64,000 bases of DNA from IMG/VR virus record IMGVR_UViG_3300045988_062648, positions 1 through 64,000 of that record; one strand, written 5' to 3'. Numbering within the stretch: the first letter of the stretch is position 1; each line of letters starts with the position of its first letter. The notes under the pieces are model-generated. The model was not told where the DNA came from. It did no database searches and saw only the letters and a program-made list of their open reading frames with translations. The stretch comes from a virus. The translations under genes were made by a program, and so were the position numbers. Shown here in pieces: positions 9,043-60,612 of this stretch.

Positions 9043-9120
9043 AATCGTTTCTAAGCGCATCAAATTGTAGCGGCTGATTAACTTATCGGCTTAAAAATTT
9101 GAAGCCAACAGAGCTAAAAT
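9043..9120 (+). repeat. conserved intergenic element copy A (AATCGTTTCTAA...GCTGATTAACTTATCGGCT...CAACAGAGCTAAA)
   Basis: about 80% identical to 60547-60612 and related to 25453-25519 and inverted 21486-21510; contains hairpin GCTGAT-TAACTT-ATCGGC with G-T wobble versus perfect stem in copy B. Confidence 0.6.
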
Positions 9121-9126
9121 AAAATA

Positions 9127-9151
9127 GGTCTACGGCAACGTTTTGATGAAG
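9127..9151 (-). promoter_or_regulatory. TACGGCAAC iteron-like site (GGTCTACGGCAACGTTTTGATGAAG)
   Basis: near-identical to CCTCTACGGCAACATTTTGTTGAAAAG at 63569-63596 upstream of the wHTH gene. Confidence 0.45.
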
Positions 9152-9355
9152 TCTGATATGCTCTAAATACGGTTTTGAATATATCGTTAAGATGATGCAC
9201 TTAATGAACATAATAATGAAGATTACAGTATAGTATTTAATATTAAAATAAATGTTTCGCGTATTGATAAAAAAGAGTTAAATGGTTTTGTTGCTCGACA
9301 TCAAAAAGCTATATTTGCATCAAATATAGTAATGTATAATTAATCATATAAAACT

Positions 9356-10681
9356 ATGGGAGAAAATGAACTTGATTTAGGTTTCCAGCCAACACTTAAT
9401 ATAGGTGGTGGGAACAAAGGAGAAGACAACACTAAGCCAAATGAAGAAATAACACATCTTAATGGTAAAGGTGACCCTACAAATCCTGAAGATGTAACAG
9501 GTAAAGATGGTACTAAACCTGGAGAACAACCTATAATAGAAGATTCTAATAAAGGAGAAGAAGAGAAGAAAGATGGTGTAGAGCCTGCAAACCCTTCTAC
9601 GGGGGGGCTAGAACCCAATTCTCAAATTGAATATGATGGCCAAGTATATACCGTAGATGAAAATGGTAATATAGTTGATGATAAAGGTCAAATATTTAAA
9701 GAAGCTAAAGATGTTGAAGTTTGGCTTAAAGAAAATGAAATAGTTGATGAAACAAAAGAGACAGATGCAAATAAGATTGATATTAAAGCAATACAAGATG
9801 CATTTGGTATAGAAGTAACAGATGAAGATGGTAAACAAGTTGAATTTACTAATGATGCACAAGGTCTTAAATCTTATGTAGATTCTGTTATTGATATAAA
9901 GTCTAAAGATATACAAGAAGCTACTATTAATAGTTTTCTTGAGAATAATCCTCTTGTTGCTGAATTTATTGATTATGTACAAGTTAATAATGGTAGTCCT
10001 GTAGGATTTGGAACAATTCCTGATAGAAGTAAAATTCAACTTAATAAGGATAATGAACAACAGCAAGAGTATATCATACGAATGGCTGCTAAAGAATTTG
10101 GTAATAATAGTCTTAATGATAATTACATTAAATATCTTAAAGACAGCGGAGGTTTGTATGATGAAGCTAAAGCTCAACTTGAAGCTCTTGTAAATAAAGA
10201 TAAACAAGTACGTGAGAATATAGCTAAACAAGCTGAAGCTCAACGTAAACAAGAAGAAGAAGATTTAGTTAATTATTGGAAAAATGTAAATTCTATTATT
10301 GAGAACAGAAACATTGCTGAATATAAACTTCCTGAGAGTTTTACAAAAGAAGTAGATGGTAAGAAAACAATAGTAACACCAAATGACTTCTTTAATTATC
10401 TGACAAGGCGTACAGTTGTTGATGAACAAGGTAATAGAATAACACCTTATCAAAGAGATTTATATGCAATAACCGAAGAGGAAGAACTTAATAAAGACTT
10501 ACTTGATGCTTGGTTAATGTTCACAGGTGGTACATATAAAGATTTAGTAGATATGGCAATTAAAGAAGATAATGTTCGTAAATTGCGTATTAAGTCTAAA
10601 GAACAACGTACTATTAAACCTATTAAGATTGTTAAGAAAGCAAATGGAGGTAAAGTTGATATTAATGATATTGTGTTATAA
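9356..10681 (+). CDS. acidic coiled-coil protein, putative scaffolding protein
   Basis: 441 aa, very acidic N-terminal half (GEDNTKPNEE..., EEEKKDG), helical KAQLEALVNKDKQVRENIAKQAEAQRKQEEE; located between portal and capsid genes; contains dispersed motif copy (9592-9618). Confidence 0.35.
   Translation: MGENELDLGFQPTLNIGGGNKGEDNTKPNEEITHLNGKGDPTNPEDVTGKDGTKPGEQPIIEDSNKGEEEKKDGVEPANPSTGGLEPNSQIEYDGQVYTVDENGNIVDDKGQIFKEAKDVEVWLKENEIVDETKETDANKIDIKAIQDAFGIEVTDEDGKQVEFTNDAQGLKSYVDSVIDIKSKDIQEATINSFLENNPLVAEFIDYVQVNNGSPVGFGTIPDRSKIQLNKDNEQQQEYIIRMAAKEFGNNSLNDNYIKYLKDSGGLYDEAKAQLEALVNKDKQVRENIAKQAEAQRKQEEEDLVNYWKNVNSIIENRNIAEYKLPESFTKEVDGKKTIVTPNDFFNYLTRRTVVDEQGNRITPYQRDLYAITEEEELNKDLLDAWLMFTGGTYKDLVDMAIKEDNVRKLRIKSKEQRTIKPIKIVKKANGGKVDINDIVL
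9592..9618 (+). repeat. dispersed motif copy (forward, variant): cccttctacgggggggctagaacccaa
   Basis: inside scaffold-like CDS (PSTGGLEPN). Confidence 0.65.
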
Positions 10682-10714
10682 ATCCATTAATGTTTAATTT
10701 ATAGTAGTTTAATT

Positions 10715-12190
10715 ATGTACAAATTAAGAGAAGTACAACGTGGTAATTATGATGACCGTGGTTATTCTAATGAGGAAACCATAGCACATCTAATGCTTCA
10801 AAAACCTGCTGAAATTAACAGTATTCTGACTTATACTTATGGTATGGACGATGATAGGTTTCCTCTTACTTTCTTAACAGAGGGTCAAGGAAATGCTGGA
10901 GTTGTTGATATTGATACTGTTCAATGGACGTGGAAGACTATGGGACGTATGAAGTTTAATGATTATGTTCTATGGTTTGATACAAGTAATACTACACCTG
11001 GTAAAGGTGGTGCTATGTTCGATGTTGAGTTTAAGACTCACTGGCTTATTGAGCAATATGGTCTTATAGCTCCTGATGGACATACTCAAGTACGTATTAT
11101 GAAAGACCTTGGAGAAGGTGCTCATGGAGGTTATTTGTATCGTCTTAAACTTACTAGTCCTAATCCTAATGCTTATTGTGATCTTGATAATCTTGTTGTA
11201 GGTAAGTATTGGAGTATGACAGCTCCTACTATAAGTGAATCTTATAGTAAAGGTAATAGGAGTAATGTAATGGGACCTGGCAAGATGACAAGTCAACTTG
11301 AGTTCCACCGTTACTCAAAGGAAATTGCAGGTAATATTTCAAATGTTGTAGTAAGTTACGAGTTTAAGACTAAGACTGGTGGTACAACTAATCTTTGGAT
11401 TAATGAGGAAATGCGTCAACATGATATTACTTGTCGTATTATGGATGAGGAACGTCTTTGGGTTTCAGAGTATAACCGTACAGAGAATGGTGAAATTACT
11501 CTTCTTGACCCTGATAATGGTCAACCAATTCCTCATACAGCAGGTATGATTGAGATTTGTCGTGAGAGTAATTATGATACTTATGGAGAAGTTCTTACTC
11601 TTAATAAGATTGAACGTTCTGTAGGTGATGTTCTTGACAAGGATACAGATACTGGTACTATGGAGGTTGTACTTATGGCTGGTAAAGGTTTCATGGAAGA
11701 CTTTGATATAGCTATTCGTAACGATGCTCGTAGTGAAGGATTTGTTACTCCTCTTGGTGATAAGATGATTGAAGATTTCAATGGTGGACTTTCTTATGGA
11801 AAGTATTTCCGTCGTTATAAAACTGTAGATAATCATATTATTACAGTACAACATCTTCCTTTCCTCGACCATGGTACTATTGCAGAGAATGATAAAGCTA
11901 ATGGCAATATTCATCCTCGTACTGGTCGTCCTATGAGTTCTCACCAAGCATTCCTTATAGACATGTCTACTTATCAAGGAGTACGTAATGTACGTAAAGT
12001 TCGTCAAAAGGGACAAATCTATAAGATTGGTATTCTGAAAGGTCTTACAGATATTCCTGCTTCTTGGGGTGCAGTACCTAATAATTCTATATCTACCGAG
12101 ATTGATATGTCAAGGTATGAAATTAAGAATAGCTACGGTCTGCAAGTAAACAACGCTACCAAGATGATGCAGTTGAAGTGTGTACTCTAA
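10715..12190 (+). CDS. putative major capsid protein
   Basis: 491 aa, size and position (after scaffold-like gene, about 2 kb past portal) typical for HK97-fold MCP of crAss-like podophages; inference. Confidence 0.45.
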   Translation: MYKLREVQRGNYDDRGYSNEETIAHLMLQKPAEINSILTYTYGMDDDRFPLTFLTEGQGNAGVVDIDTVQWTWKTMGRMKFNDYVLWFDTSNTTPGKGGAMFDVEFKTHWLIEQYGLIAPDGHTQVRIMKDLGEGAHGGYLYRLKLTSPNPNAYCDLDNLVVGKYWSMTAPTISESYSKGNRSNVMGPGKMTSQLEFHRYSKEIAGNISNVVVSYEFKTKTGGTTNLWINEEMRQHDITCRIMDEERLWVSEYNRTENGEITLLDPDNGQPIPHTAGMIEICRESNYDTYGEVLTLNKIERSVGDVLDKDTDTGTMEVVLMAGKGFMEDFDIAIRNDARSEGFVTPLGDKMIEDFNGGLSYGKYFRRYKTVDNHIITVQHLPFLDHGTIAENDKANGNIHPRTGRPMSSHQAFLIDMSTYQGVRNVRKVRQKGQIYKIGILKGLTDIPASWGAVPNNSISTEIDMSRYEIKNSYGLQVNNATKMMQLKCVL

Positions 12191-12219
12191 AAGTTGATAA
12201 TTAAATAAGGGTCGATACT

Positions 12220-13341
12220 ATGTCACAATTAAATCTAAATCCAGATAGTGCAGCTAAAAGTGAAGTTGTAAACCAAGCTGCTCAACAAGAGATTGCAGCA
12301 GCATCTAGTGTAAGCGAAGAAAAAGAAGCTGAACTGAATGCAGAATATGTTGATAATCGTACTATCACTATATCTCTAATTCATAATTATTCTACTTATC
12401 GCAAAGCTAACATGAAAGTTCTAGGACAGCGTAAAGAGATAATTGGGAGTTCTATTACTTCATGTCGTACACTTTCATCTAATAGAGGTGAAGTAGAAGC
12501 ATATTTTCCAGCACTTATAGGTTTATCTCCAAATAATCCTGAATTTATTACTCGTGTTAAGGCTTGGCTTAGTAACATACAAGTAGCCGTAAACGACAAT
12601 GACATGGTGTTGAATATATCTTTTATATATAATCATAAAAGAGATTATTTGGCATTTAAAGCTAAGGAAGAAAAGATTGATGAGGAATATGAAAGAGTAG
12701 ACAGAGCTAATCTTAAAGCAATTAAAGATGCAATTAAGAAACGTGTTGAAGCTCTTAATGCTCTTGAAAGTTCTAAATATCAATATGGACGACCTGTTAA
12801 TCTTGAACAATATCTTATATATAGGCATTGTCTTTTGTATAAGGATGTTGCAAAGGATATGGCTTTGATTAATTCAGATAATAGTCTTAGATTCTATATT
12901 AAAGACGAGAATAAAGAAGCTGCTAAACGTAAGAAACTTACTGAAGAACGTGTTCGTGCAATGCGTAACTTTGTAGAAATTGGTGCTTCTGATAGTAAAT
13001 TTAATGCTGTGTTTGTTGCTATTGTTATTTATCTTGGTAGGCAACTTGCTACAGAACTTCTCAAGACAGATGATGAAAAGAAAGCTATTGCTATTCAATT
13101 CGTTAATGAACATCCTGATAAGTTTAATAAGATAGTTAATGATAGGAATATAAGTGTTAAAGCGTTTATTGAAACACTTATAGCTCGTGGTGAACTTGTA
13201 CGTTCCGAGTATAATCAACAAATATCTACAGCTGATGGTACATTTATAGGAAGTAATATGAATGACGCTATTGCTTATTTCAATAATCCTAATAATAAAG
13301 ATGTACGTACAGCTTATGAGAATAAATTGAAACTCTTTTAA
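12220..13341 (+). CDS. hypothetical virion-module protein
   Basis: 373-aa ORF in capsid gene block. Confidence 0.4.
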   Translation: MSQLNLNPDSAAKSEVVNQAAQQEIAAASSVSEEKEAELNAEYVDNRTITISLIHNYSTYRKANMKVLGQRKEIIGSSITSCRTLSSNRGEVEAYFPALIGLSPNNPEFITRVKAWLSNIQVAVNDNDMVLNISFIYNHKRDYLAFKAKEEKIDEEYERVDRANLKAIKDAIKKRVEALNALESSKYQYGRPVNLEQYLIYRHCLLYKDVAKDMALINSDNSLRFYIKDENKEAAKRKKLTEERVRAMRNFVEIGASDSKFNAVFVAIVIYLGRQLATELLKTDDEKKAIAIQFVNEHPDKFNKIVNDRNISVKAFIETLIARGELVRSEYNQQISTADGTFIGSNMNDAIAYFNNPNNKDVRTAYENKLKLF

Positions 13342-21416: not shown

Positions 21417-21424
21417 TCATTCGT

Positions 21425-21454
21425 TCTCTTCTACGGGGGTTGTAAATCCCAACT
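21425..21454 (+). repeat. dispersed motif copy (forward, subtype A): tctcttctacgggggttgtaaatcccaact
   Basis: 10 nt after stop of 20742-21416; forms 15-bp inverted repeat with 21571-21596. Confidence 0.75.
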
Positions 21455-21485
21455 CATACTTCGCCAATTTGCCTATTTCTTTTGC

Positions 21486-21510
21486 GTCTGTCGGCTTTAA
21501 TCAGCTCTCG
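21486..21510 (-). repeat. short inverted copy of the conserved intergenic element (GCTGATTAAAGCCGACAGAC on minus strand)
   Basis: reverse complement matches GCTGATTAA...GCC(A/G)ACAGAG blocks of copies at 9071-9115, 25474-25516, 60568-60610. Confidence 0.4.
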
Positions 21511-21570
21511 TGAACAACATATCAGCTAAGTCATGTGAAACGGCTGACGGGCTTTAAAATGGGTCGGTCA

Positions 21571-21596
21571 CTACCACCCCCGTAGAAGAGATGATA
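21571..21596 (-). repeat. dispersed motif copy (reverse): ctaccacccccgtagaagagatgata
   Basis: reverse complement tctcttctacgggggtggtag; inverted partner of 21425-21454. Confidence 0.75.
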
Positions 21597-21628
21597 ACAA
21601 AGTTATTAATCTTAATTCAAATAAACTT

Positions 21629-24600
21629 ATGGATATTAAAACTGATAATATAGATAATATTAAAGCTCTTATGGCTAATATTCTTGATGGTCATAATGGA
21701 GAAAATCTTTATGCTTATCTAGCAAAGTTTAATTCACTTAATGTCGGATATGTAGCTAATGCTAAATCTGCACGTGAAGCTGTACCAGAGATATTTCGTA
21801 AGAATGGTTTATATATTACTTATTATATTAATAATAAACCTACAACTGAAATATTTGTTGGGGATAAAACTGTTGCTGGAAATGAAACTGAATGGGTTAA
21901 AGATGAATATTGGGAATTTAGTGATGGAATAGGTCATGTAGATTCTAATAGTATTACTCTTAATCAACTTAGTAAAGAAGTACTTGATTTAATATGCGCA
22001 AATAATGAAATTAATATAGTTAATTATCCAGATGGAGAAGATTTAACTGAATTTGATGTTTGTGGTGGTAATAGTAAACGAGCAGTTAATGCTTTAAGAT
22101 TTGCGAATAAAGAATATAATCCTGCTAATTTTAGTGGTCTTGGACGAGTTTATCTTCGTAAGAATATAATAGATGATAAGAACATTCTTACACAAGATAT
22201 GATTAATGAAAATAATATTCGTTATATTATTCAATATGCTTATGACTTAAATGATGCTACTATTAATATACCTACAAATTCTGTTCTTGAATTTCAAGGT
22301 GGTAGTTTTACTAATGGTACATTGAATTGTGATGGTACTGTTATAATGACTTATGATAAAGATTGGCTTGATGTTACTCTTAGTGGTACTTATTTCTTCT
22401 TTGGTTGGGCTGATAGTATAGAGCAAGTTGAAATTGTTAATAATTTGACAACTGATGATGCTACTAAAGCTCTTAGTGCAGCTCAAGGTGTAGTTATTAA
22501 GAATTTGCTGGATGATGCTTCTAAAGCTCTTATTGATGCTCAAACTGAAATTAATCAAAAGTTTACTCAAATAGCTGAACAGATACAAAATATTACTGCT
22601 GATATTGATATTCCAACTGATAAACCTGCTAAACCTGGCCTTGGTGATTTATGGTTTAATACTACTAATAAGACTTTGAATTATTGGAATGGTACTGAAT
22701 GGATTGAACTTAATGATTCTTTTGATAGCCAAAAGGTTTCTGCTGATGTAACTGATGTTCAGACTGTTGAAGCTAATGAAGAAGCTGAAGCTACTGCTAA
22801 AATAGTTAATAGTCAAATACAGTTTACATTTAAGATTCCTAAAGGAGCTACAGGTAATACTGGACCTCAAGGAGAAACTGGTCCTCAAGGAGAAATTGGC
22901 CCTGAAGGTCCTCAAGGTCCTCCGGGAAATGATGGTCATGATGGAGAAGATGGTAAGGATGGTGTAAGTCCTACTCTTCCTAATTATAGTATTTATCGTT
23001 ATCGTAAATCTGATAGTAAACCTGCTACTCCAACAGGTACTTCTCAGAATCCATCTGGTTGGACTGATATACCTAATGATGCTGGTAATTGGTGGCAGTG
23101 TGTTGGTGAAGTAAACGGAGCTACTGGAGCTGTTACTCGTTGGGGAGAAGTTCTTCCTCTTAATGGTCGCGATGGTATAGCACAAGACGGTAAATATACT
23201 GAAATGCGTTTTGCTGTTAATACAAGTCGTGTTACTTATCCAACTATTGATAGAAGTGTTCGTACTCCGAGTGGTTGGACTCTTGCAGCTCCTTCTGTTA
23301 GTCAAGGTCAATATCTTTGGATGACAACAGCTATTATTAATCCAAATGATACTCTTAATACTAATTGGAATATTCCTGTTTGTATTAGTGGCCCTACAGG
23401 AGCTAAAGGTGCTACAGGTCCTGCTGGTGATCCTGGTAGTCCTGGTTCTCAAGGTCCTGCTGGTATTCCAGGAGTTAATATGTTAGTTATGTATTGTGTT
23501 GGAACTGATACACATATAGGTGGAACTACTGAAGTTACTAATCATTGGAAAAGTAGCGATGTTTATGTTATTACTGTCCCTTCTTATCAAGGACTTGGAA
23601 CAGGTTGGTATAAAACTATACCTGATTATGACCCAAGTACTCAATATATTTGGTGTACACAAGGTAAACGAGAATATACTTCTAGTACTAAATATACTGA
23701 AACTTGGAATAAACCTTTTAGACTTAATGGTCTTAATGGTCTTAATGGAGAAGACGGAAGTGGCAAACGAGGACAAATAGTTTATCCAGCTGGTATTTAT
23801 GATAATAATACTGCTTATGTTACTGATGAAAATAAAGCTCCTTATGTTCTTGATACTACAGACGGTTATTATTATGTACTTAATGCAATTATGACTTGGA
23901 GAGGTAGTGAACAAGGTAATCGTACTCCTTCTCAAGATTATGCTATTAATAGTGGTAAATATTGGCTTAAGTTTGAAGGCTTTAATGCTATATATGCTAA
24001 AATAGGTATAATTGCTAATGGTCTTGTTGGTAGTGCTGTATTTAATGGAGATTGGATGTTTAGTCAAGCTGGACAAAATTCTTCTGGCGGACCTTCTACT
24101 CAATATGAAAATTTTAATCCAAGCAATCCTTATGGCGGTGCATTTAGACCTAATGTAGCTATTAATCTTAAGACTGGAGAAGTTTATTTTGGTTGTGATA
24201 AAACAAGATTTGGTGCTGATGGCTCTGGTAAATTAGCTAACGGTAATATCAAATGGGATGCTGATGGTAATATTGTTTATAATGGTTTGCTTGCTTCTCT
24301 TAATGTATTAGAAGATACTAATGTTGGTGTAACTTATGCTGATATTACTTTGCCTCATTTATCTGCTCCTGATGTTGATTCTGAATATCAAATGGAATAT
24401 ACTTATGTATTTGGGCCTAAAACTCGTGCTGGTTTAACAAGACGTGTTCAACTTGAAGAACGTAATGATACTTTGTATTATAATGGTGGTACTTTTTCAG
24501 GTTCAGGCGTTCTTAATATTGAAGATAAAATTCCATCTGCTTATGGTTTTATTAAGTTTATTTGTCGTATTGATGGACAAGATAATACTTGGTATATGGT

Positions 24601-24661
24601 TGTAGTTAAAGATTGTAATCTTAAATTTTATGGAACAGATAATAATGCAATTAGTAGATAA
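21629..24661 (+). CDS. tail fibre protein with collagen-like Gly-X-Y repeats
   Basis: 1010 aa; GNTGPQGETGPQGEIGPEGPQGPPGNDGHDGEDGKDG and GPTGAKGATGPAGDPGSPGSQGPAGIPG triple-helix-type repeats; N-proximal module shared with 16512-17648. Confidence 0.55.
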   Translation: MDIKTDNIDNIKALMANILDGHNGENLYAYLAKFNSLNVGYVANAKSAREAVPEIFRKNGLYITYYINNKPTTEIFVGDKTVAGNETEWVKDEYWEFSDGIGHVDSNSITLNQLSKEVLDLICANNEINIVNYPDGEDLTEFDVCGGNSKRAVNALRFANKEYNPANFSGLGRVYLRKNIIDDKNILTQDMINENNIRYIIQYAYDLNDATINIPTNSVLEFQGGSFTNGTLNCDGTVIMTYDKDWLDVTLSGTYFFFGWADSIEQVEIVNNLTTDDATKALSAAQGVVIKNLLDDASKALIDAQTEINQKFTQIAEQIQNITADIDIPTDKPAKPGLGDLWFNTTNKTLNYWNGTEWIELNDSFDSQKVSADVTDVQTVEANEEAEATAKIVNSQIQFTFKIPKGATGNTGPQGETGPQGEIGPEGPQGPPGNDGHDGEDGKDGVSPTLPNYSIYRYRKSDSKPATPTGTSQNPSGWTDIPNDAGNWWQCVGEVNGATGAVTRWGEVLPLNGRDGIAQDGKYTEMRFAVNTSRVTYPTIDRSVRTPSGWTLAAPSVSQGQYLWMTTAIINPNDTLNTNWNIPVCISGPTGAKGATGPAGDPGSPGSQGPAGIPGVNMLVMYCVGTDTHIGGTTEVTNHWKSSDVYVITVPSYQGLGTGWYKTIPDYDPSTQYIWCTQGKREYTSSTKYTETWNKPFRLNGLNGLNGEDGSGKRGQIVYPAGIYDNNTAYVTDENKAPYVLDTTDGYYYVLNAIMTWRGSEQGNRTPSQDYAINSGKYWLKFEGFNAIYAKIGIIANGLVGSAVFNGDWMFSQAGQNSSGGPSTQYENFNPSNPYGGAFRPNVAINLKTGEVYFGCDKTRFGADGSGKLANGNIKWDADGNIVYNGLLASLNVLEDTNVGVTYADITLPHLSAPDVDSEYQMEYTYVFGPKTRAGLTRRVQLEERNDTLYYNGGTFSGSGVLNIEDKIPSAYGFIKFICRIDGQDNTWYMVVVKDCNLKFYGTDNNAISR

Positions 24662-25417: not shown

Positions 25418-25452
25418 TTAAGTAATAATAATTCGAGCTAATTTCAGCCCTT

Positions 25453-25519
25453 ACAATCGCTCGTAACTCGTTGGCTGATAGTTACTTCACACCCGTTATT
25501 TCGAGCCGACAGAGGGCAC
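25453..25519 (+). repeat. conserved intergenic element copy C (diverged): ACAATCGCTCGTAA...GGCTGATAGTTAC...GAGCCGACAGAGGGCAC
   Basis: shares AATCG(Y)T, GCTGAT(T/A)A and (A/G)ACAGAG blocks, in same order, with copies A and B. Confidence 0.45.
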
Positions 25520-25647
25520 GTATGAGCCTCCTGCGAGGTTCTTAGCATTTGGTTTATTCAGTCAAAAACACTATATTTGCAATGTTGGAAACGTGCTGCA
25601 CTTGATATTGTAGTAAGCCGTGGCACTAATATTGAGATAGATAGTGT

Positions 25648-25675
25648 AGCAATACAACCCCCGTAGAGAAAGGTC
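25648..25675 (-). repeat. dispersed motif copy (reverse, slightly degenerate): tagcaatacaacccccgtagagaaaggt
   Basis: reverse complement cctttctctacgggggttgtattgcta; partner of 25781-25812. Confidence 0.7.
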
Positions 25676-25780
25676 GTTAATGTGTGTTTCTGTTAAGATT
25701 GCATCTAATTTAGTTTGTTTCATAGTTAAAAGGTTAGTAATAAAGTAGGTGAAGCTAATAGTGATATTCGCTAATCCATC

Positions 25781-25812
25781 AACTCTTCTACGGGGGTTGT
25801 AGTTTCCAACTT
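25781..25812 (+). repeat. dispersed motif copy (forward, subtype A): aactcttctacgggggttgtagtttccaactt
   Basis: perfect core plus extended TTGTAGnnTCCAACTT tail; 40 nt upstream of ATG 25854. Confidence 0.8.
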
Positions 25813-25853
25813 CTTTTGATAGTAATAATAGTAAAAATAATAAACTTAAATAT

Positions 25854-26564
25854 ATGGCTTCAGTTGCACAACTTGTTAGTGAACTAGCGCATAGTGTAGG
25901 TATGCCTAATAACAGAGCTTTACGAGAGAATCTTAAAAGTCTAGTTATTCATACTCGTAATGAAGTTATAAGACATAGTTATGAGAATCATGGTTATGTT
26001 GACAAAGGTCTAGTTCAAAGATATAAAGTTAGTCTTATAGATGTTCAAGATGGTGATATAAAAGAATTAGAAGGAATTAGTTTTGAAGATTTAGAACTTG
26101 ATGATTTAGAACTTACTAAAATTAAACGTACTGAGCAAAGAGTTCCAAAACCTGTTCGTCTGACTAATAATTTACCATTTGACCGTGTTAGCTCTGTTGG
26201 TTTTAAAACTAATAGAGCTTTTCCTTTTATAAAAGAGTCTTCTGCAAAGTTTAGAAAATCTGTTCCAGGTCTTTGTGGTATGCCTTGTTATGATTATATA
26301 AATGGTTATATTTATATATTTCCAGTTAGCAATAAACCATTTGATTTACAAAAGATTGTAATCGAGAGTGCTTTTGAGCATCCAACTCAAATAGAAATTG
26401 CTAATGGAGAAGTAGACGATATTGAAGGAACACTTGACCTTAATGAATGGGTTTTATCAGAAGATATGATAGGACAAATTAAAGAGATTATATATAAACG
26501 TGATTTACTATCTACTGTAAGACAAACGGATGAAGTTCCGAATACAGTTAAATTTAATGGTTAA
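25854..26564 (+). CDS. hypothetical virion/tail-module protein
   Basis: 236-aa ORF. Confidence 0.4.
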   Translation: MASVAQLVSELAHSVGMPNNRALRENLKSLVIHTRNEVIRHSYENHGYVDKGLVQRYKVSLIDVQDGDIKELEGISFEDLELDDLELTKIKRTEQRVPKPVRLTNNLPFDRVSSVGFKTNRAFPFIKESSAKFRKSVPGLCGMPCYDYINGYIYIFPVSNKPFDLQKIVIESAFEHPTQIEIANGEVDDIEGTLDLNEWVLSEDMIGQIKEIIYKRDLLSTVRQTDEVPNTVKFNG

Positions 26565-26567
26565 GAT

Positions 26568-27533
26568 ATGAATTTACAAAATGAAAAACCAAAGGCTGAT
26601 AAGCCTACTACTATTAGTATCTATTTTCATAAAATGCACGATAGAGCAGTTTATAGAGTAGATAAACTTGAACGAGAGTTAGAAGAAAAGAGATTAAATT
26701 GTATTGCATTAAGAGACGATGTTAAGTCTCAATACAATGTTTATAAAGATAAGTTTGGTATTAATCTTTTAAATTATAAAGAATTTGTAAATAATACTTA
26801 TACAGATGGTAGTTTTCGTAAAGCTGCAATGATGGCTTATCTTAATAGAAAGAATAATCATGAATTAACTATTGAGCTTTATAATCTAGTAAAACTAGCT
26901 AATCTTCAAAAACGAGTTAAAGAACTTGCTAAAGAGTATGAAGTTTATAAAAAACTTGCAGTAATTGGTTATAAAGAATATTGTAGAATAGTAAGTCTTT
27001 ATTACGAAAAAGTTCAAGAACTTATGATACTAGATGCAAAAGGTTATGCTTTTACTGGTAGAATGGGTTGGACTTGTATTAATAGATATAGGAAAAAATC
27101 AAACAATAATAAAATAGATTATGAAGCTACTAGAAAAGCTAAAGAAAAACTAATAGCAGAAGGTAAAAGACCTTATGATGCAGAAGAGGCTAAATGGTGT
27201 AAAGATAACGGTCTTCCTTATGATGGTGTAAAATATATTGTTCTTAGAAATGTAGAATACGATTATGAACTTCCTTTAATAGAAAGTCATATACCAGGAG
27301 GAAAAAGTTTTAAACATATTACTTCTGCTGATTATATAAATAAAGAGCTTAGAGGCAAGTCTTATGATGATATGATAGAGCTTTGTCATCATAATATAGA
27401 TGAAGTTCTAGATTTAGATATAGATATTAAAAAGAAACTTGCAATATGTCTTAGAATTAATCCTTTATTATATACTAAATATATTAGACATGAAAGTCAA
27501 AAATCATATAGACGTATCAAGATTGATTGGTAA
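26568..27533 (+). CDS. hypothetical virion/tail-module protein
   Basis: 321-aa ORF, lysine-rich helical. Confidence 0.4.
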   Translation: MNLQNEKPKADKPTTISIYFHKMHDRAVYRVDKLERELEEKRLNCIALRDDVKSQYNVYKDKFGINLLNYKEFVNNTYTDGSFRKAAMMAYLNRKNNHELTIELYNLVKLANLQKRVKELAKEYEVYKKLAVIGYKEYCRIVSLYYEKVQELMILDAKGYAFTGRMGWTCINRYRKKSNNNKIDYEATRKAKEKLIAEGKRPYDAEEAKWCKDNGLPYDGVKYIVLRNVEYDYELPLIESHIPGGKSFKHITSADYINKELRGKSYDDMIELCHHNIDEVLDLDIDIKKKLAICLRINPLLYTKYIRHESQKSYRRIKIDW

Positions 27534-44600: not shown

Positions 44601-45738
44601 ACGTATATTCCAAGCTATTAAAGGTAATAAACAACAAATAGAAATTCCTCATATAACAGATGATGAAGGAAATGTTATAAGTTTATTCCCAGCTGATATT
44701 AGGTTTGAACCTAAGATGAATGATAGACAAGATAGTCGAGGAGTAATAGCTTATACTACAAGTGATAAAAACCATAGGCATATTTATGTTTATAATAGTC
44801 CTACTGATAAAAATTCTGCTCGTGTTGGAAGAGCTGTTGGTAAAGTTTATGTAGGAACTAAATGGCTTAATATGATAAGTAGTAATAATGAAGCTGTTAG
44901 AAATGTAGCTATTTCTAAACTTATTCATGAACGTTTACATTTACTTATACATGATGCAAAATATGCTGCAAAAGCTCCTAAACTTTATTCTGATATTGCT
45001 CCTATATATGAAGAATTTTGGAAACAAGTAAATAATATTCGACAAGATGCTAATGCAGATGCTACTCTTAAAGAACTTGCTAATCATGCTGTAACTACTT
45101 TCCAACCTTATTTCAATACAGAAGCAAGTACTAGAAATGATGAAGCTGCTCATAATAGAGCAACACAAGTATTATATGAAGAGTTTATAGTTGAAAGTCT
45201 TACTAATAGTGCTTTCCTTAATCTTCTTAATGCTATGGAGGCTACAGAAGAAATAAGTAGAGGCAAACAAAATCTGCTTAGTAGAATTATTGATGCTATA
45301 CTTAATTTCCTTGGTATTACTGATAAAATAAATAAAGGTAGTCTTCTTGAACAACAAATTAATACTTTAGCTAATTCATTTAATAATGATGATGTATTAC
45401 CGCCAAATGTCAATAAAGATATTGAACAAAGTGTTTCTCAGGAAATTGAAAATGATGTTAACGAAGTACAAGAAACACAAGAAGTAAGTAATAAGGAAGA
45501 AGATACTTTAACTTCTGATGAACAAGATGATGCCGATGTATTTGACGAAGAAGGAGATGATTATGAAGATGTAGATGACAATGCTAATGCTGCTAATATA
45601 GCTGAACCAATTCTTCCAGTAAGTGAAGAAATAAGTATTTCGTCAATCGACTACTTTAGCCGCCAGCTCCCTGGGATAAGCCAACGCCAATTTAGGGCAA
45701 TGATTGACCGTGGTGACGTTAATTTCCGATGCAGGTAG
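38677..45738 (+). CDS. giant virion (cargo-type) protein
   Basis: 2353-aa uninterrupted ORF; contains four dispersed-motif copies, a GC-rich Thr/Pro/Gln linker (about 41640-41800), HERLH motif and acidic C-terminal tail. Confidence 0.5.
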   Translation: MNTELIFSQGGVEVPNPAYNSRSKKRGVSPTIIVPDASQASSMADIAYRTNPALYGQYDYADVKKYYGEGLMPNKISPNLDVELAEAQSGIKKFGNALAQTLVSEIALGTVIGITDLLDVVGNAISMNTNNDYQNPISRTLTEWQEKFRNEVAPIYTDPTKNIANGGLLDMGWWASNIPSIASSLTLLIPSTGVTKGLSALSKSTNIGAYTRTAVRAATKKLGNKSLYRAANRPSTITAWNRGIELGINAGLQRTMENYQEARQVYNDSLEDSINTLQNMSPEDYQNMLQRNADMFEGVDTSNIQEVAKAIARRASDRTFAMDFANIGFDVMQLYALRNVFGNNRLANVGRASARRANRLSIKYAGKSQAEIDKLEAARPWRERTLDNIKDYAIGSGYAIKAQLSEGVEEAVNYIAQEEGMSLGRTILGKENPSSFDYRLKQYMFAPQLWESAFWGTLGGVTFQAAGSGLMRVANTIKKGTEVDPITGERRQNVAWAGLSMLPEVERRVKDIESRNIKMGQLAELIKTIDKDHKNPFQRNADGSFVDIPNKIDQDAAKELAINEFVTDIALQANNNGNYEATREYLADDNVRQAMVQAGIVDEASSKEWQQSVLRKYDQVKEQYENELFKLDDLAATSNVKGRVPIEFLQNAATFNVQTKLNIANLRSQQSAYTEQYNKAKADAIENGKLDATYDYDSIIKLSTIVSGLNALYQQRKEIQDDIKQNGATVAKQISLDEINKRITKLQKDFYIDNSTNQLVSLLAGLSSIYNSRARNEEIDKNLEKALNDALQNNKFGGIETLLGLEPDTITVSEEEHKNIVNAYNKFNKEFINRTEGKQGINQIGKQNVEALSNAIALGYTIANQQSQVIDTQSDLDYYLNMMNNSMDEARRNAIEESYNTIRELNKKYGRRSIEEALALAYQGKSSLEALDDYEEGDRNNLNRAIKILNLTSAPNRILYDDIQALLDIEDKLSADRRANTEVLSTTNQNPVQSTETSQTNNPSAVTSETPTAQANRQNGNVPPTQTPSQTATSEPINVRVGTRSGNPFITAISDTGAQNQNGTLVPTTVAGRYRLQTQEEQILNNDNFYDKENGVSVIDGDYKITQEPIVILDNDGKYVIEEKGLLSKVNDEKPPVEDNGGTQQGGNSFQDAIRDKETQQGVVQQSQDDATSSTGGESQVDSFIPVEDLSQAVAARMTDINVLDSNLDLDAKAQQYKEQLNPEEFGVTREELDRVIDERIAGFKQLKEHLATLQNPQAQAATGIAFAARLMEPTSNVFSLMFASSMSSFVQEYAKSMIIPKTTDGRYVINLRSFLRQLRDALGSNNKDVILPIYRQIKTYFLSADGKANYVLDNYETLLDDSVLDNLDKSVEQIRQEQNNNVTTLRVNINDFIEAANNVYDDARRQEYFNVLDNLKVGDKLTLRTLDGYIEVSKGNVVVGNMSIAKVTPDGRYYVYNEGWREDVNIGSNGQIISDAKQIIEDIFTGQSVNHTSLRKIITDAITARDISKNLVNRFAANPIINDLANRSRGEQAGERIFFVDDKTGLIDYDRILRHLVKLWNYSFVSNKSIVTNDDIKASLNNWYEKLYHTYNNINYLAQQQDVTVSYMNEGAINRKVENDTANAYEQFEYASNGIADLSQAALGITAPITNTMVISGHNGESSTWSAGSTVVAIYSRNTKPDFVKAYGLRLTTDEMKQNATFKAMNDAMQNRLISIINSLISNNSDENFSKLVDTITSILACRNFTDYVNPKTKVPIYRAMSGRFQIRPVTYRNTPNIKGIDIIYTSPDGRMSNFHIYNHGANRPQIGYKPANTNRFVFTDTDSTITGSRIATDFMNFIAPYVNFNIAQAGIALDNNPNADYAGFITHKNGKVVVNIPTEDNTIGFNEEYDSYSQFVLSNNLVKVNTFVGQNGKNFSYQNGNQRANQVLYVDSELGTTTPVEETRYINSNSDAALNQQVYDILNSNEPTSNTGERIFQAIKGNKQQIEIPHITDDEGNVISLFPADIRFEPKMNDRQDSRGVIAYTTSDKNHRHIYVYNSPTDKNSARVGRAVGKVYVGTKWLNMISSNNEAVRNVAISKLIHERLHLLIHDAKYAAKAPKLYSDIAPIYEEFWKQVNNIRQDANADATLKELANHAVTTFQPYFNTEASTRNDEAAHNRATQVLYEEFIVESLTNSAFLNLLNAMEATEEISRGKQNLLSRIIDAILNFLGITDKINKGSLLEQQINTLANSFNNDDVLPPNVNKDIEQSVSQEIENDVNEVQETQEVSNKEEDTLTSDEQDDADVFDEEGDDYEDVDDNANAANIAEPILPVSEEISISSIDYFSRQLPGISQRQFRAMIDRGDVNFRCR
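42075..42099 (-). repeat. dispersed motif copy (reverse): gaagccccccgtagaagataacggt
   Basis: inside giant CDS (KPPVEDNG); inverted partner of 42189-42217 about 110 nt downstream. Confidence 0.7.
42189..42217 (+). repeat. dispersed motif copy (forward, subtype B): aacctcttctacggggggcgagagtcaag
   Basis: inside giant CDS (SSTGGESQ); GGGC-GAGA-G(T/C)CC mini-hairpin possible. Confidence 0.75.
44481..44511 (-). repeat. dispersed motif copy (reverse, extended): gttgggaactacaacccccgtagaagaaacg
   Basis: inside giant CDS (LGTTTPVEETR); reverse complement tcttctacgggggttgtagttcccaac matches full subtype A consensus. Confidence 0.8.
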
Positions 45739-45796
45739 AATACGTCCACTTTTAATTTTGAACCGCTTAAAATCGAATTTAAAATATATAATAACT

Positions 45797-48700
45797 ATGA
45801 GTGATAAAAGTTGTATTATAAAGTTTAACGATAGTAGTCTTTCAAAAGAACTTACAAAAAGAACTGGTCATAATAGTATAAAGTTTGCTGCTTATGAAGC
45901 CGCAGTAATTGAAAATGGTCAGTTTAATCAAGCATTTACAGATTGGTATAAAGCTCGTTATAAAAGAACACCAAATCTAGAAGTAAAAGACGCTAAGACT
46001 TTAGCTGATAGAGTAATTGAATATTATAATACTGAAGTGTATACTACAGCTAGAGATATTACAAATCAAAGTGTAGATGCTAAACAAGTACTTGAAAATG
46101 GTTATAATAGTTTTCAAGATAGAGAACTTGGTAAACATTTTGTAGCTGTATCTATACTTAGAACTTATCGCGATGTTCATGACCTTGGCATAAATATTCG
46201 TGGTAGTAAACGAGATTATTATACTAATACTGCTAAAAGAGCATGGAATGATTATATATTTGAATCTATAGTTGCTAGACGCAAGAAAGATATTAATCAA
46301 GTTAAAGAAGAATATGATTCTGCTGAAGATAAATATGCTTATATTAATAAAGAACTTGGTAGAAATAAAACTGTAAGCGAAGTTAATCTTATTGCAGTTT
46401 GGAATGAGTTAAATGGTAGTGCAGATAAAGCTCAAAGGTTTATAGATGAAGTTTTTGCTACTAATGAAATATCTAATATTAGAGCAGAAATAGATGATGT
46501 TGAAACAGATAAAAATATAAATGATGCTTCTGATGCTAATCGAGAAGAAAATGATTTAGATAACGGAGAGGATGTAGCAAAAGAAGAAGATGCAACTGAT
46601 GATACTATTAGTAAATTTGATCATTCAGGTGTTTATAGTACTTGGCTTAAACATCTTAATCAAAGACTTGTAGTATATTTCAATACTCTTGAAGTTCTTA
46701 ATAGTCCTACTCAAAATGATGGTGCTTGGGATGTAAATAGAAATAATAGTTTTGGTATAGCAAATACTATGGATGCAGCAGCTTGTTCTAAGCTGATATT
46801 TGCTAATAATGGTTTTGCTAATACTGATGAAATGATTTATACTATTAGACGTTTAAGTACTACTATACCTGGCTTTGAGTCTTTTGCTAAATTTGCAGAT
46901 GACCTTGAACACGATGCTGATTTACGTACAGAAGTATTTACTACGTTTAGTAAAGCTGTAGTTCCTAAACTTGAAACTGTAATCGAAAACGAAGAAGTTA
47001 ATACACGTATTAGTAATCTACGGGCTAATCCGAGACTTGCCACAATGTTCTTGGCGTATGATGATATGCGAGCTTCTATAGGTATTGATAATACTTTTAT
47101 GCAAAGTAGAGTTAATGCTTTTGAAAGAAGTCTTAAAAAGAAGAGTGGTGTAGTAGAAAATGCAAAAGAAAGACTTAATAAAGATATTGACGATATTATT
47201 GATATAGTTCGTCAATATATACCATCTATTCCAGCAAATGCTATAAAAACATTTATACAAAAGAATAATCACGCAGATAATGATATTAATGCTCAATATG
47301 ATAATCTTAATATTATAGTTGGTAATCTTAAAAACATTATTAAGAGTGCATCTGCTACCCAAACTAGATATAATAGTTTTATAACTAGAATAAATGAAGC
47401 TGTTGAACATAATGACGCAATAAAACATGATGTTAGTGGACAACCACATAGTCATACAGAATATATAAATATAGCCGACTTATATAAAGAAGATTATCTT
47501 GATGCTAGTGTTAATGGTGCTGTTGCAGCTATAGTTGATAATGTTCTTCAATATATTAATCCTGACGTATCTTTTAATTCTCGTAATCAAGATGGTAATC
47601 AAAACTCTGATGTAATTAATAATAGTTTAGTTACATATATGCGCCGACTTAATAGTCGTTGGTATATGTATAGAGATGAAGCTACAGGTAATGCTACTTG
47701 GCAAAATGATGAACTTCTTGATTGGGGAAGAGAAAGACTTTTAAGTCAGCAATATACTTATAGTAATATACTTCTTGAACACAGAGATGAAGAAGGTAAT
47801 ATTCTTAATAAAGGGTTGTTCCGTAAAGGTGATAATGGAGAACTTTCTTTAACAGAATATGCTAAAGATCTTTTTGATATTTATTATTATAATGGAGCAT
47901 CAGATTTAGATAATGGTACTAGTGCAGGTTATTCCAAAATGAATATTGGAGTATATGCACCTACTACTTATATGAATTATTTTAAAGCTAATGTTAATGG
48001 TGTTTCAGATAGTAATTTTGCTAATTATTTCTTACGTATTCCATCAGATGCTCCTAAAACTTTTATACTACGTGCTCCAAGATATAGTACAAAAAATCTT
48101 TATAGCGTAGCTAATAGAGATGAAATACGTCAAGCTGCAAGTGAAATAGTTGATAATTACGATAGAATTAGCATTAATGATTTTACTAGAGATTATTTTA
48201 ATGAAGAAACAATAAAAGTAAAAGGTAATAATATCAACTCTACAGAAGATATAATTGCTAATTATCTTACCGATAAAGGAGATATGTATGTTCCAACACT
48301 TAAAGCTGTTAAACAAATTCCTGATAGTGATGAAGTTTATGTAGCTGTTGAAACAGTTGGAACATATAAAAATCCAGATGGAACATATAGTAATCACTTG
48401 TATATAATAAAAGGTACTCTAGTAAAGAGAGGTAAAGCTAATTTCCTTACTAATAGAGAATATATTGCTTCTGTATCTGATACTCATGATATGGATGAGA
48501 AGGTTAAAAACATTATGAGAAATTACTATGAACGTAGGCTTGAAACTCATGATGTTACAGTTAAAGGAACTACATATAATAAAGCTAGACGAGAAATAAA
48601 TAGAAATCATACTATTGTTAAGATACTTCTTAATAACTTTAAACAAGAACTTCTTGACATGGCTACAACACTTAACCATTACTTTGAATTTAATGCTGAT

Positions 48701-51700: not shown

Positions 51701-54700
51701 GCAGCTAAAACTCCAGAAGATTTTGCTAAACTTAATACCCGTCATGCTAGAAATAATGCTATTGTTCAATCTATGCTTAATATACTTCAAGATGTAAAGA
51801 ATCTTGAAGAAAATCTTTCTCGTTCTAATTCAGATGATATAGAAGCTAGTATAGATAAATGTCTTGGGGATAATGCTAAAGCTGAACGAGAAAATCGTAG
51901 CCAGTATAATGTATTTGACGAAATGCGTTATCAAGAAGAAGCTATGAGTGGTGCTGTCCTTAAAGGTGCTAGCGTATTTATGGATAGTGTATGTTCTATA
52001 TGTAATGTTGTTAAACCTACACTTCGTGGTGGTGTTAAAGTTTCTTATGATACTAAATTTTATAATCAAGAAGAAATTACCAAACGTTACGGTTTAAATA
52101 AAAATGATATTAGTAAAGGACGTATTCGTGTAGTACATAATCAATATGGCTGGAGTTCAGATAATAGAAATGTTATTGGACGACTTATAACACCTTATAG
52201 TTCAGAAACTACAGCTTATATTCTTGATGCTATCAAGAAAGGTGCTATGCCAAATGTTAATCAATTTACTTTCCCAGTTCTTAAACATTTGGTTAATCTT
52301 GGTATAGATTATGATACTGCTATATCATTTATGGCAAATCCTGCTATAAGTACAATAATACGTAATAATAATAGATTTAATTCTATTTATAGTAATGAGT
52401 TTGGAAATGCTATTCATGAAAGTATTAACGAAATAGCTCGTCAACTTGGTATAAAAGTAGATGAAAAAACACCTGTAATAAGTGTTCTTGCTTCTGTTCA
52501 ATCTAAGTTTGGCGATGTTATTAATAAGATATTTAAAGTAGATAAAGAAGACGTTAAATTTAGTCTTGAAGAAGAAGCTGCTGCTACTCTTGCTTTAATG
52601 CCTGATAAACTTATAGCAAGACTTAAAGATAATGGTATCTTTGGCACTACAACCCCCGTAGAAGAGAAGTTGATATTTGACTTAGGTAATATACTTATCT
52701 TTAATAGACTTCGTAATCAAGCACAAGAAATAGGTGGAGTAGCAACTGCTCTTAATCCAGATAAGTTTGGTGCTAAAATGAGTCTTTTTGCTACTAATCA
52801 AATATTTGATAAAATACTTGGACAAATATATACTGATAGTAGTTATGTAGAAGAAAGAACAGACCCTATTCTTAGTATTAATGGAGAACATATACTTAAA
52901 AGTATTTATCCAGGTATTACAGGAGACCCAGAAAATAGTATAGAACCTGGAGTTCCAGCAATGCTTAGAGCAGATATTAGTAAAAGTACTTATCCATCTC
53001 TTGCAGCATTTCTTAAATATGCTACAGCTACTTCTTCTGTAATTGCTAAACAAGTTCTTCTTACTCAACATCCAGCTTTTATTCGTTTTTGTAACGGACT
53101 TGCAACTAAGTTTAGTGATGTTGTACAAGAAATGGACGAAAAGCAATATAATGATTTTCAAAAGTATGCTATTAGTTATTTCTACAATAATGTAGAAAGT
53201 ATTAGGCGTCCAATTGTACCAGTCAAAAACGAAGATGGTACTTATAGTTATAATATAGATAATAGCGATACTCCAGACAATGCTACTATTTCAATAGAAG
53301 ATGCAGAACGTGAACGAGTATTTGGTTATAATAGAGTTCCAGCTTTATCTATAGTTGAAAAAGTACAAGTTACTAGAAATGGTAAAACTATTAATAAGAC
53401 TGTTACTCGTCCAATAGAAATAGAAAATCTTAATCATCCAACTCAAGAAGAACTCAATGATTTTGCTCAATTTAGTCCTGCACAAAAAGTTAAGTTTATT
53501 AAAACTCATTTTGATGATGCAGGAGTGTTCGATTATATTGATGTTCAACTTTATAATCCTACAATAAGAGGTTGGAGAACTGGTATGCAAACTCTTGAAT
53601 ATCTTGAATCTAACGTTGGTGACAATGTTATATTTAATATGTTCTATGAAGCATATAATAATCGTAATCCTCTTGTTGCTATGGCTGCTAGAGATGTAAT
53701 TAAATATGCAATACAAGTTGAAGGTTATCGTATGCGTCAAACTGCTGCTGGTAAAGTTATTAGTAATAAACCTCTTAATACTGGTTATGAAGAAGGTGGA
53801 ATGAATTTCTTTGCAGAAGTTGCTGAAATGTTTTCTACTATTGGTACAACAGGTAGTGCTATATTTGAACAAACTAGTATGGATGAAATATATGAGAGAT
53901 ATTTTAGAAGTCATATAGATAATCCTCATATTAAATCATTTAGACTTACTAATTCAAGTATGATTAAGTTTAATATTCATACTCGTAGTTACGATATGCT
54001 TGTAATGGAGAAAAAGTATGATGAAACTTCTGATGATGATAAAATAGCTAAAGAGTTTAATAATAATTGTGCTAAAGCAGGAATTAAAACTTATCATCCA
54101 GCTTCTAATACATATACTACAAATAATTATCTTAGAGTATATCGTGATAAAAAAGTTGTATTATATAAAATAAAAGATCTTGGTGATAAAGTTATACTTT
54201 ATCCTCTTAATAAACTTCAACCTAATGAAACTACTGAATGGTCAGCTAATGATAATAATAATGAATATCCTAATAAAATAACTTATGAAGGTATTATTCA
54301 TGATTATCAAAAACAACTTTTTAATGATGCTGCATTACAATTTACTAGTGGTTGGATAAAAGAAAGTAATAATGCTAGAAAACAAAATGGTGAAAATCCT
54401 GTAGTTTATTATAAGCATCGTAGAGATTATAGCAATCAAGCAGCTACAGTTGATTTCAATCTTGATAAACTTGCTAATGAACAAGGAGGTGCTTTAGCAC
54501 AAGCTCGTGAACAAATTAGAAGTAATTTTGAACGACTTAATGCTAAACATCTTTATATGCGTAATGCTGCTCTTGGTAATTATATATTTGTTCCAGGTTT
54601 TGAAAATGCTAGTAAGCAAACTATTACAATGAGAAATGGAGCTAAAAGTACATTCCTTATTGCAAAAGTAGATACAGACAGAAGTAGAACAAATAAACGT

Positions 54701-60046: not shown

Positions 60047-60073
60047 GTTGGGATATACAACCCCCGTAGAAGA
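60043..60073 (-). repeat. dispersed motif copy (reverse, extended): aagttgggatatacaacccccgtagaagagg
   Basis: starts inside stop codon of giant ORF; reverse complement cctcttctacgggggttgtatatcccaactt is the full subtype A consensus. Confidence 0.8.
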
Positions 60074-60291
60074 GGTGATGGTAGAAGTTGTAATACTCTA
60101 CTATTCACCTCTTTCTCTTTCTTAACATAATTTTGTAATTCTGTTTAATGCTGAAACAAGTAATATTACTATATTTGTAATACCGCTTATGCTACATATA
60201 TAATATGACTTGCATTTGTTCCTGATGCAGGTGGAGGACGAAAAGGAGCAGGAGTTCAAGCTAGCTCTCCTTCATCAAAAGTTAGCTACAA

Positions 60292-60362
60292 TGGAGCATG
60301 GTGTAATGGTAGCACCACAGGTTTTGGTTCTGTTAGTAGAGGTTCGAGTCCTCTTGTTCCAA
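60292..60362 (+). tRNA. tRNA-Gln (anticodon TTG)
   Basis: Folded by hand: acceptor TGGAGCA/TGTTCCA (one G-T), D-arm GTGT-aatggta-GCAC with GG, anticodon arm ACAGG-ttTTGgt-TCTGT (U33, anticodon TTG, G37), T-arm AGAGG-TTCGAGT-CCTCT, discriminator A; GC-rich island in AT-rich DNA. Confidence 0.75.
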
Positions 60363-60466
60363 CAACGATTTTGTTTATTTGTTGATTGCTGTAAATGATA
60401 ATGTTTAAAGGGTTACTTGAAACTTTCTTTTAAAAGTTGAATAAAGTGTTTTTGAAAGTAATTCGA

Positions 60467-60496
60467 TAGCTCGGCTAGTGATAGTCGAGCTATTTT
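60467..60496 (+). terminator. intrinsic terminator-like hairpin TAGCTCG-(12 nt)-CGAGCTA followed by TTTTT
   Basis: 7-bp GC-containing stem plus T-tract about 100 nt downstream of tRNA, at point where + and - strand gene blocks converge. Confidence 0.45.
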
Positions 60497-60546
60497 TGTA
60501 TGTATTAAACAAGATGAAATAAACTACCATATTTTAAATTCCTCTA

Positions 60547-60612
60547 CAATCGTTTTAATTTTGCAAGCTGATTAATTTATCAGCTAAGATATTAGAACTC
60601 AACAGAGCCAAA
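60547..60612 (+). repeat. conserved intergenic element copy B (CAATCGTTTTAA...AGCTGATTAATTTATCAGCT...CAACAGAGCCAAA)
   Basis: about 80% identity to copy A at 9043-9120 including perfect 7-bp hairpin AGCTGAT-taattt-ATCAGCT. Confidence 0.6.

Follow-up and report, generated by a model that had tools for sequence, protein, structure and literature searches.

crAss-like phages are the most abundant human gut viruses, and we know of almost nothing that has been established about their regulatory signals. In phage N4, the hairpins of the promoters read by the virion RNA polymerase have 5- to 7-bp stems and 3-nt loops. The single published study of crAss-like transcription reports, for other members of the group, putative middle/late promoter motifs upstream of the structural gene next to the portal gene and of RNA polymerase, IHF, and tRNA genes, and finds no common upstream motif for the early transcripts of the only crAss-like virion polymerase studied (bioRxiv 10.1101/2020.03.07.982082). 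Long intergenic non-coding RNAs are abundant in phi14:2, at the g004-g006 junctions, which belong to its early end. Here, we describe a repeated intergenic element in a 64,000-nt stretch of viral DNA (positions 1 to 64,000 of IMG/VR record IMGVR_UViG_3300045988_062648; hereafter, the window). The window is from a crAss-like phage of the Crassvirales, Intestiviridae, nearest the Obtuvirinae. The closest complete genomes (Crassvirales, Intestiviridae, Obtuvirinae) are ctcc615 and cr271_1, with capsid proteins 87 to 88% identical to that of the window, and cr8_1 (76%). Sequence comparison identifies two copies of the element, A and B, together with an inverted copy at 21.5 kb and a half copy at 45.7 kb, as paralogs of one module of about 115 bp, and by the same kind of comparison the module is kept at matching intergenic positions in Obtuvirinae-type crassviruses. 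An initial annotation of the window had proposed that its long intergenic regions share a family of conserved non-coding elements. That proposal held up, in that the copies are related beyond the level of shuffled sequences and are also found in relatives. In the literature on crassvirus promoters that we searched, neither this element nor a second motif found alongside it (CTACGGGGG) was described.

The relationship between copies A and B was already drawn in the initial annotation. The best local alignment between the two gaps that hold them scored 49, against 23.6 ± 2.8 for 200 dinucleotide shuffles, none of which reached 49, and the shared core of 46 nt is 83% identical. These values mark A and B, at the level of sequence, as true paralogs. 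Profile searches were performed with nhmmer on the whole window or on its intergenic regions only, and one profile was built from relatives without any window sequence. Aligned with relatives, each copy is about 115 to 120 nt long, rather than the roughly 70 nt assigned earlier, and the relatives-only profile also extends beyond the earlier limits. Copy A (positions 9027 to 9146, plus strand; E = 1.9e-20) lies in the gap between the portal gene and a 441-aa gene, and copy B (60526 to 60641, plus strand; E = 3.7e-18) lies 165 nt past tRNA-Gln; both are full length. The relatives-only profile matched A at 9031 to 9143 (E = 1e-17) and B at 60527 to 60629 (E = 4e-14). Both copies start at a ATATTTTAAA block, upstream of the AATCG named in the initial annotation, and the element ends in GGTCTACGGCAACGTTT in A and in GTGGCAAATTTC in B, where it meets the stop codon of a small convergent minus-strand open reading frame (ORF; 60628 to 60816). 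Copy A aligns with its counterparts in relatives block after block, and copy B is closer than A to some portal-side copies of relatives, its AAAGTGGCAAAT tail included.

Two further copies are inverted. The inverted fragment reported at 21486 to 21510 is real, but it is only the 25-nt middle of a full-length copy on the minus strand (21457 to 21559), which fills the gap upstream of a 1010-aa tail fiber gene. With a profile that included A and B, this copy was found at an E value of 0.0018 window-wide and 5e-5 among intergenic regions; the relatives-only profile gave 0.003. Two inverted copies of the CTACGGGGG motif, at 21431 (plus) and 21577 (minus), lie on either side of it. Orthology of the fiber genes flanking this gap could not be shown. 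The second, a half copy with the 5' blocks only (45746 to 45794, minus strand; E = 3.6e-4 for the whole window and 7e-6 for the intergenic regions only), was absent from the initial list. A distance of 3 nt separates its A-rich end from the start codon (ATG at 45797) of the largest gene in the window, the 4.7-kaa virion gene. At the orthologous junction, ctcc615 has a full-length inverted copy, and the proteins encoded by the largest gene in the window and in ctcc615 are homologous from their first residues. A mechanical ORF call starts this gene at a TTG at 45704, overlapping the preceding gene (45704 to 45796); from the sequence, the true start is likely the ATG at 45797 (MSDKSC...), because the homology with ctcc615 begins there.

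The copy C proposed at 25453 to 25519 fared less well. No profile matched it even at an E value of 100, and the alignment of A with region C scored 28, compared with 21.8 ± 2.5 for shuffles, 5 of 200 of which reached that score. The counterpart in cr271_1 does reach significance (E = 1e-9) and lies ahead of the orthologous 236-aa gene (68% identical), and the window and cr271_1 gaps align weakly over this stretch. Position, as the counterpart of a real copy in cr271_1, is thus what speaks for region C (25440 to 25545, plus strand), a doubtful and degenerate member.

Lack of conservation in relatives had been set beforehand as grounds for giving up the family. Instead, matching positions were occupied in 43 of 80 contigs and in the three complete genomes. 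The sample consisted of contigs with portal proteins 57 to 89% identical to that of the window, and each of the 43 (portal proteins 60 to 89% identical) carried one copy at a profile E value below 1e-3. In all 43, the copy is on the structural-gene strand, upstream of the gene ahead of the capsid gene (the pre-capsid gene), and it keeps its place even with extra genes inserted between the portal gene and the pre-capsid gene. Among the complete genomes, cr8_1 and cr271_1 have six copies each and ctcc615 has four (E < 0.01; reverse-strand matches overlapping a stronger copy are omitted from these counts). Copies are present between the portal and capsid genes, at the convergent junction past tRNA-Gln, ahead of the IHF-like genes, where the two giant genes meet, in gaps of the replication module, and, in cr8_1, upstream of a roughly 1000-aa gene that matches the fiber-gene position in the window. 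The copy B position after tRNA-Gln is occupied in cr8_1, by two facing copies, and in cr271_1; in ctcc615 the equivalent convergent junction is occupied, with no tRNA annotated. Protein orthology confirmed matching positions at two sites. Most copies in the complete genomes are on the structural-gene strand, including copies within the oppositely transcribed replication module. Searches for relatives of the tRNA-side gap yielded little: the C terminus of the giant protein retrieved no loci, the dUTPase gene retrieved one contig without the element or the CTACGGGGG motif, and a tRNA-Gln pattern retrieved two contigs (170 and 321 kb) without the element and with a single match to the motif core, TACGGGG.

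The 62-aa ORF at 60628 to 60816, which resembles a membrane protein by eye only, ends exactly at the copy B end, and a terminator-like hairpin (60836 to 60865, minus strand) lies ahead of it. In cr271_1 and ctcc615, a small convergent gene is annotated that adjoins or overlaps the copy; in cr8_1, one lies just upstream of the facing copy.

The initial annotation had also noted a central hairpin and taken it as a hint of RNA structure. The inverted repeat GCTGAT-N6-ATCAGC is indeed perfect in copy B (60567 to 60584, plus strand) and carries one G-T at the equivalent position of copy A (9073 to 9090), but it is not a feature of the family. Structure tests were carried out on an alignment of 35 diverse members, in which 5 or 6 stem pairs are kept in only 7. 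Standard pairs fill 49.5% of the stem cells, compared with 52.3% in shuffles, and the stem covariation score of 0.106 falls below the shuffled mean of 0.141. Because the stem neither pairs nor covaries above shuffles, the G-T in A is no evidence of a wobble-tolerant helix. RNAalifold predicted 0 pairs for the 35 members on either the aligned strand or its complement. At the gathering score, Rfam models matched only tRNA-Gln in the whole window; at E values up to 10, the gaps holding A and B gave sub-threshold noise of 10 to 23 bits. A structured non-coding RNA family was accordingly rejected, there being no consensus structure, no covariation, and no Rfam model. What is kept across the family is the right half of the repeat, TTATCA, and more loosely TGAT-N7-ATCA, within an AT-rich module whose blocks follow in the order TTTAATATTTTAAAT, TTTCnGAG, TGATTAAnTTATCA, ATTTGAA, GCCAACAGAG, and GGCAAATTT (CTACGGCAATGTTT in some members). 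The alignment has very few gaps over about 120 columns, and the block spacing is therefore rigid. The conserved features of the element are sequence blocks at rigid spacing, not a folded RNA.

On this basis, we tentatively favor, with less than even confidence, a DNA-level cis-regulatory module that sits at transcription-unit boundaries and is bound by a putative phage or host DNA-binding factor. We rank this reading first because it can accommodate copies in either orientation, rigidly spaced blocks, an absence of structure, and nearby terminators and promoters. In long gaps, the module would follow the terminator hairpin of the previous unit by 20 to 45 bp and would have a canonical host-type promoter downstream of it, directly adjacent at 25.5 kb and 140 bp off at 9.3 kb. 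In short gaps, it would be inverted and fill the spacer, with its A-rich end at the next start codon. From these places it might tune re-initiation, insulation, or the timing of middle/late transcription. The element is found in both orientations relative to neighboring genes, so a DNA-binding site fits better than a directional RNA signal. In short co-directional gaps it is always inverted and fills the gap, with the A-rich end 2 to 70 nt from the next start codon.

A hairpin followed by a T-rich tail was present within 70 nt upstream of 40 of 52 distinct copies, compared with 8.2% of random windows. Copy A is preceded, 22 nt away and after the portal stop codon, by a hairpin with an 8-bp stem (AGTCCTAG/CTAGGACT; 8970 to 9004, plus strand), which was read from the sequence and was not called by the terminator scans. 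A terminator-like hairpin of 13 pairs followed by TTTGTATGT (60465 to 60494, plus strand) ends 31 nt before copy B. The possibility that the element itself is an intrinsic terminator was rejected, as its own hairpin has no T-run and the terminator-like hairpins are separate and upstream.

Promoters were recognized by the host rule of a -7 box, TAnnTTTG, with a -33 TTTG 19 to 21 nt upstream. A canonical Bacteroidota promoter for the capsid operon, TTTG-N19-TATATTTG (9287 to 9317, plus strand), is separate from copy A and 140 nt downstream of it. Another, TTTG-N20-TATATTTG (25548 to 25579, plus strand), directly follows region C in the gap before the IHF-like genes, and the cr271_1 gap aligned over this stretch also has ATTTGGTT and TATATTTG. 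Canonical boxes were likewise seen upstream of tRNA-Gln (60170 to 60177). From their sequences, the boxes in these three places fit transcription by the host polymerase. We also noted a second partial copy of the 5' block of the element (TATTTAATATTAAAATAAATGTTTCGCG) at 9238 to 9270, about 50 nt upstream of the capsid-operon promoter.

The element itself, which the initial annotation had offered as a possible host-polymerase promoter, does not follow this rule. Copies A and B have neither the -7 nor the -33 host box, and the strict -7 box was found in block 1 of 7 of the 35 members; a primary-sigma promoter was rejected given the missing boxes in A and B and the inconsistent results of the box search among members. 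A scan for sigma-70-type promoters found sites no more numerous than in shuffles. The 5' block was also rejected as a general promoter: it had one extra match within 3 mismatches, as did the shuffles in 37 of 100 cases.

Several observations weigh against a regulatory DNA module at unit boundaries. The terminator count is dominated by orthologs of one gap, so that its 40 cases are not independent events. No gene follows copy B on its strand, and it therefore cannot be an upstream activator there. Copy A and its surroundings are 67% identical to the closest relative (L011), whereas the adjacent promoter stretch is 92% identical, so that the element diverges faster. Of the two cultured phages checked by profile search, prototype crAssphage had no copy at an E value below 0.01, and crAss002 gave a single weak reverse-strand match at that threshold. 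In cr271_1 (after tRNA-Gln) and in ctcc615 (at the equivalent junction), moreover, the copy is followed by a hairpin and T8-9 on the opposite strand, an arrangement that may resemble a transcript 3' end and would there favor an RNA reading.

That RNA reading, an unstructured module transcribed from the strand opposite to that first aligned, is the strongest of the alternatives, although we consider it unlikely. Inverted copies would be 5' leaders of about 100 nt, A and B would be a small RNA or a 3' untranslated region (UTR) ending at the neighboring hairpin, and the RNA would work by its linear motifs, for instance by enhancing translation initiation or by serving as a decoy for a leader-binding factor. 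Wherever it lies in a short gap flanked by genes, the element is inverted, its A-rich end 2 to 70 nt from the next start codon, but this closeness is partly forced, since the element fills short gaps. The far end often reads nAAATTTGCC, near the host -7 box (12 of the 35 members under a relaxed rule); by the strict rule, however, that strand has the -7 box in 2 of 35 members, and no -33 box lies at the right distance. The reverse complement of the copy does lead into a hairpin and T8-9 in cr271_1 and ctcc615. At the portal-capsid gap, where conservation of the copy is best, the box is degenerate, and no T-run accompanies the hairpin on that strand. Long intergenic RNAs rank with the most abundant transcripts of phi14:2, which is in keeping with such a module; the lack of conserved secondary structure on either strand is not.

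The copies could instead have little present function, as duplicated intergenic remnants, recombination linkers, or mobile repeats. They are only 60 to 80% alike, with C nearly unrecognizable, and inverted repeats lie on both sides of the 21.5-kb copy, as they would in a miniature transposable element. Such flanks occur at that copy only, however, and no target-site duplications were noticed, no dedicated search having been made. Position, strand, and block order are kept at about 60% portal identity, a divergence over which neutral sequence would not persist; mobility also sits poorly with the conserved positions between distant genomes. We regard this explanation as quite improbable.

Slightly less credible still is an origin-like DNA site for replication or packaging, with an AT-rich unwinding block and initiator boxes. 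The 5' block is AT-rich, the boxes are rigidly spaced and include the TTATCA core, and each genome has several copies, most of which share one absolute strand. A possible RepL-like winged-helix gene (62982 to 63602; an impression from its translation only) lies 2.4 kb from copy B, and prototype crAssphage has been proposed to have two origins near RepL genes (PMC10983915). However, the element was not found in prototype crAssphage, where those origins are predicted, its copies are scattered through late genes, and neither iterons nor DnaA boxes are present. Least probable is a promoter for a virion-packaged RNA polymerase, which would be recognized in single-stranded or hairpin form, as with phage N4. 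The phage has giant virion polymerase genes, A and B have the hairpin, and structural-strand copies within the replication module lie on the strand that would be the template for early genes there. The N4-type pattern was rejected: the family does not keep the stem, the loop has 6 nt where N4 has 3, and most copies are in the late structural module. The element is also found in both orientations, and the early transcripts of the only crAss-like virion polymerase studied share no upstream motif.

The motif found alongside the element, CTTCTACGGGGG / CTACGGGGG, is represented by 18 exact core copies in the window, compared with 0.02 expected. It spans 17 to 35 nt and consists of CTCTTCTACGGGGG followed by GCGAGAG or TTGTAGnnyCCAACT. 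Plus-strand copies are at 571, 3921, 9597, 15153, 21431, 25788, 32822, 42197, 48988, and 63909, and minus-strand copies are at 21577, 25658, 34416, 42080, 44495, 52653, 60061, and 63760. The motif occurs in non-coding DNA and within genes, in three reading frames and both orientations, with translations of SLLRGA, STGG, or LYGGRE forward and TTPVEE in reverse. It is therefore a nucleic acid signal rather than a protein signal. The core TACGGGG is found 15 to 28 times per genome in five Intestiviridae, including prototype crAssphage, and about 2 times in shuffles. Its flanks are uniform within a genome and different between genomes, a pattern like that of phage-polymerase promoters. In bacterial genomes, CTCTTCTACGGGGG gave almost only single matches per locus, many of them outside the Bacteroidales (e.g., in Streptomyces), and there is therefore no sign of a host repeat. 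As a string in full-text literature, the motif returned only unrelated primer sequences.

Orthologous motif sites exist across distant relatives, among them one about 300 nt before the terminase gene and one at codon 81 of the pre-capsid gene. The three largest virion genes contain forward-reverse pairs 1.6 to 3.7 kb apart (32822/34416, 42197/44495, and 48988/52653), and pairs also occur within giant genes of cr8_1, ctcc615, and cr271_1, though not in every giant gene. The reverse copy at 60061 lies just past the stop codon of the largest gene, as it does in the same three genomes. Motif orientations alternate in 22 of 27 cases in cr8_1 and in 8 to 11 of 14 to 18 in the others, a descriptive count for which the sole binomial figure was computed for 22 of 26. 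Closely spaced inverted pairs (21431/21577, 25658/25788, 42080/42197, and 63760/63909) enclose 117 to 150 nt; their interiors are unrelated to each other, and one pair is in frame within the 2353-aa gene. As RNA, such pairs could form stems of 14 or more bp. A 58-aa ORF (25546 to 25722, minus strand) between the paired copies in the gap before the IHF-like genes reads through one of them (..LSLRGLY..) and is probably not a gene.

The motif and the element meet at one block. In several relatives (L044, L056, L061-L065, L076, L001 at about 5570 on the minus strand, and cr8_1 at 53777), a reverse motif copy (gCCGCCCCGTAAAAGG) stands in place of the CAACAGAG block of the element. Since relatives carry a true reverse copy there, CAACAGAGC in the window may, judging from its letters, be a decayed motif copy. 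Together, the element and the motif might form a crassvirus-specific punctuation system read by a putative phage factor, an idea to which we give a low probability. Such a system, if real, would be a genome-wide signal of a new kind, serving, for example, the virion polymerase, DNA organisation or ejection, or RNA processing. Of the two, the CTACGGGGG motif is the stronger and more widespread unexplained signal, and it merits its own study.

The gene layout of the window, whose G+C content is low, places these signals in context. The genes for the terminase large subunit (4217 to 6493) and the portal protein (6506 to 8938) are followed, after a gap of 417 nt, by the 441-aa gene of unknown function (9356 to 10681) and the major capsid gene (10715 to 12190). 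Further on are the 1010-aa tail fiber-like gene (21629 to 24661), the genes for the IHF-like proteins (25854 to 27533), and the giant virion genes of 2353 aa and about 4750 aa; giant virion polymerase genes are encoded by the phage. tRNA-Gln (60292 to 60363) is followed by convergent minus-strand genes of the replication module. The four long gaps are at 8939 to 9355, 21417 to 21628, 25418 to 25853, and 60047 to 60897.

A conserved module of this kind provides landmarks for transcription-unit boundaries in a lineage that has no cultured model of its own, as well as a handle for finding the factor that times expression of the capsid, tail, and virion-polymerase genes. With a folded RNA ruled out, attention shifts to DNA-protein binding and transcript ends.

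Structured phage and Bacteroidales RNA motifs of the Rfam type are similar in size and are intergenic like the element, which differs from them in having no Rfam match and no consensus structure. The promoters of the N4 virion RNA polymerase combine conserved sequence with a short hairpin in a phage that, like this one, injects its own RNA polymerase, but the stem of the element is not conserved in the family, its loop is 6 nt, and its copies are not upstream of early genes. The intergenic RNAs of phi14:2 and the element share a location in long non-coding gaps of crAss-like phages, and it is by location, not sequence, that we set them side by side; unlike the early-end RNAs, the element is known from sequence alone and has no conserved structure. 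The extended "tripartite" middle/late promoter motif of phi14:2 and candidate genus VI (Drobysheva et al., bioRxiv 10.1101/2020.03.07.982082) is, like the element, intergenic and repeated in crAss-like phages. That motif includes blocks resembling -35 and -10 boxes and nearly always has the sense orientation, whereas A and B have no host boxes, copies of the element run either way, and the canonical promoters are separate features downstream of the element. Compared by gene neighborhood alone, the element copies occupy gaps matching those of the published motif, and by analogy this likeness in placement to published middle/late motifs suggests a lead.

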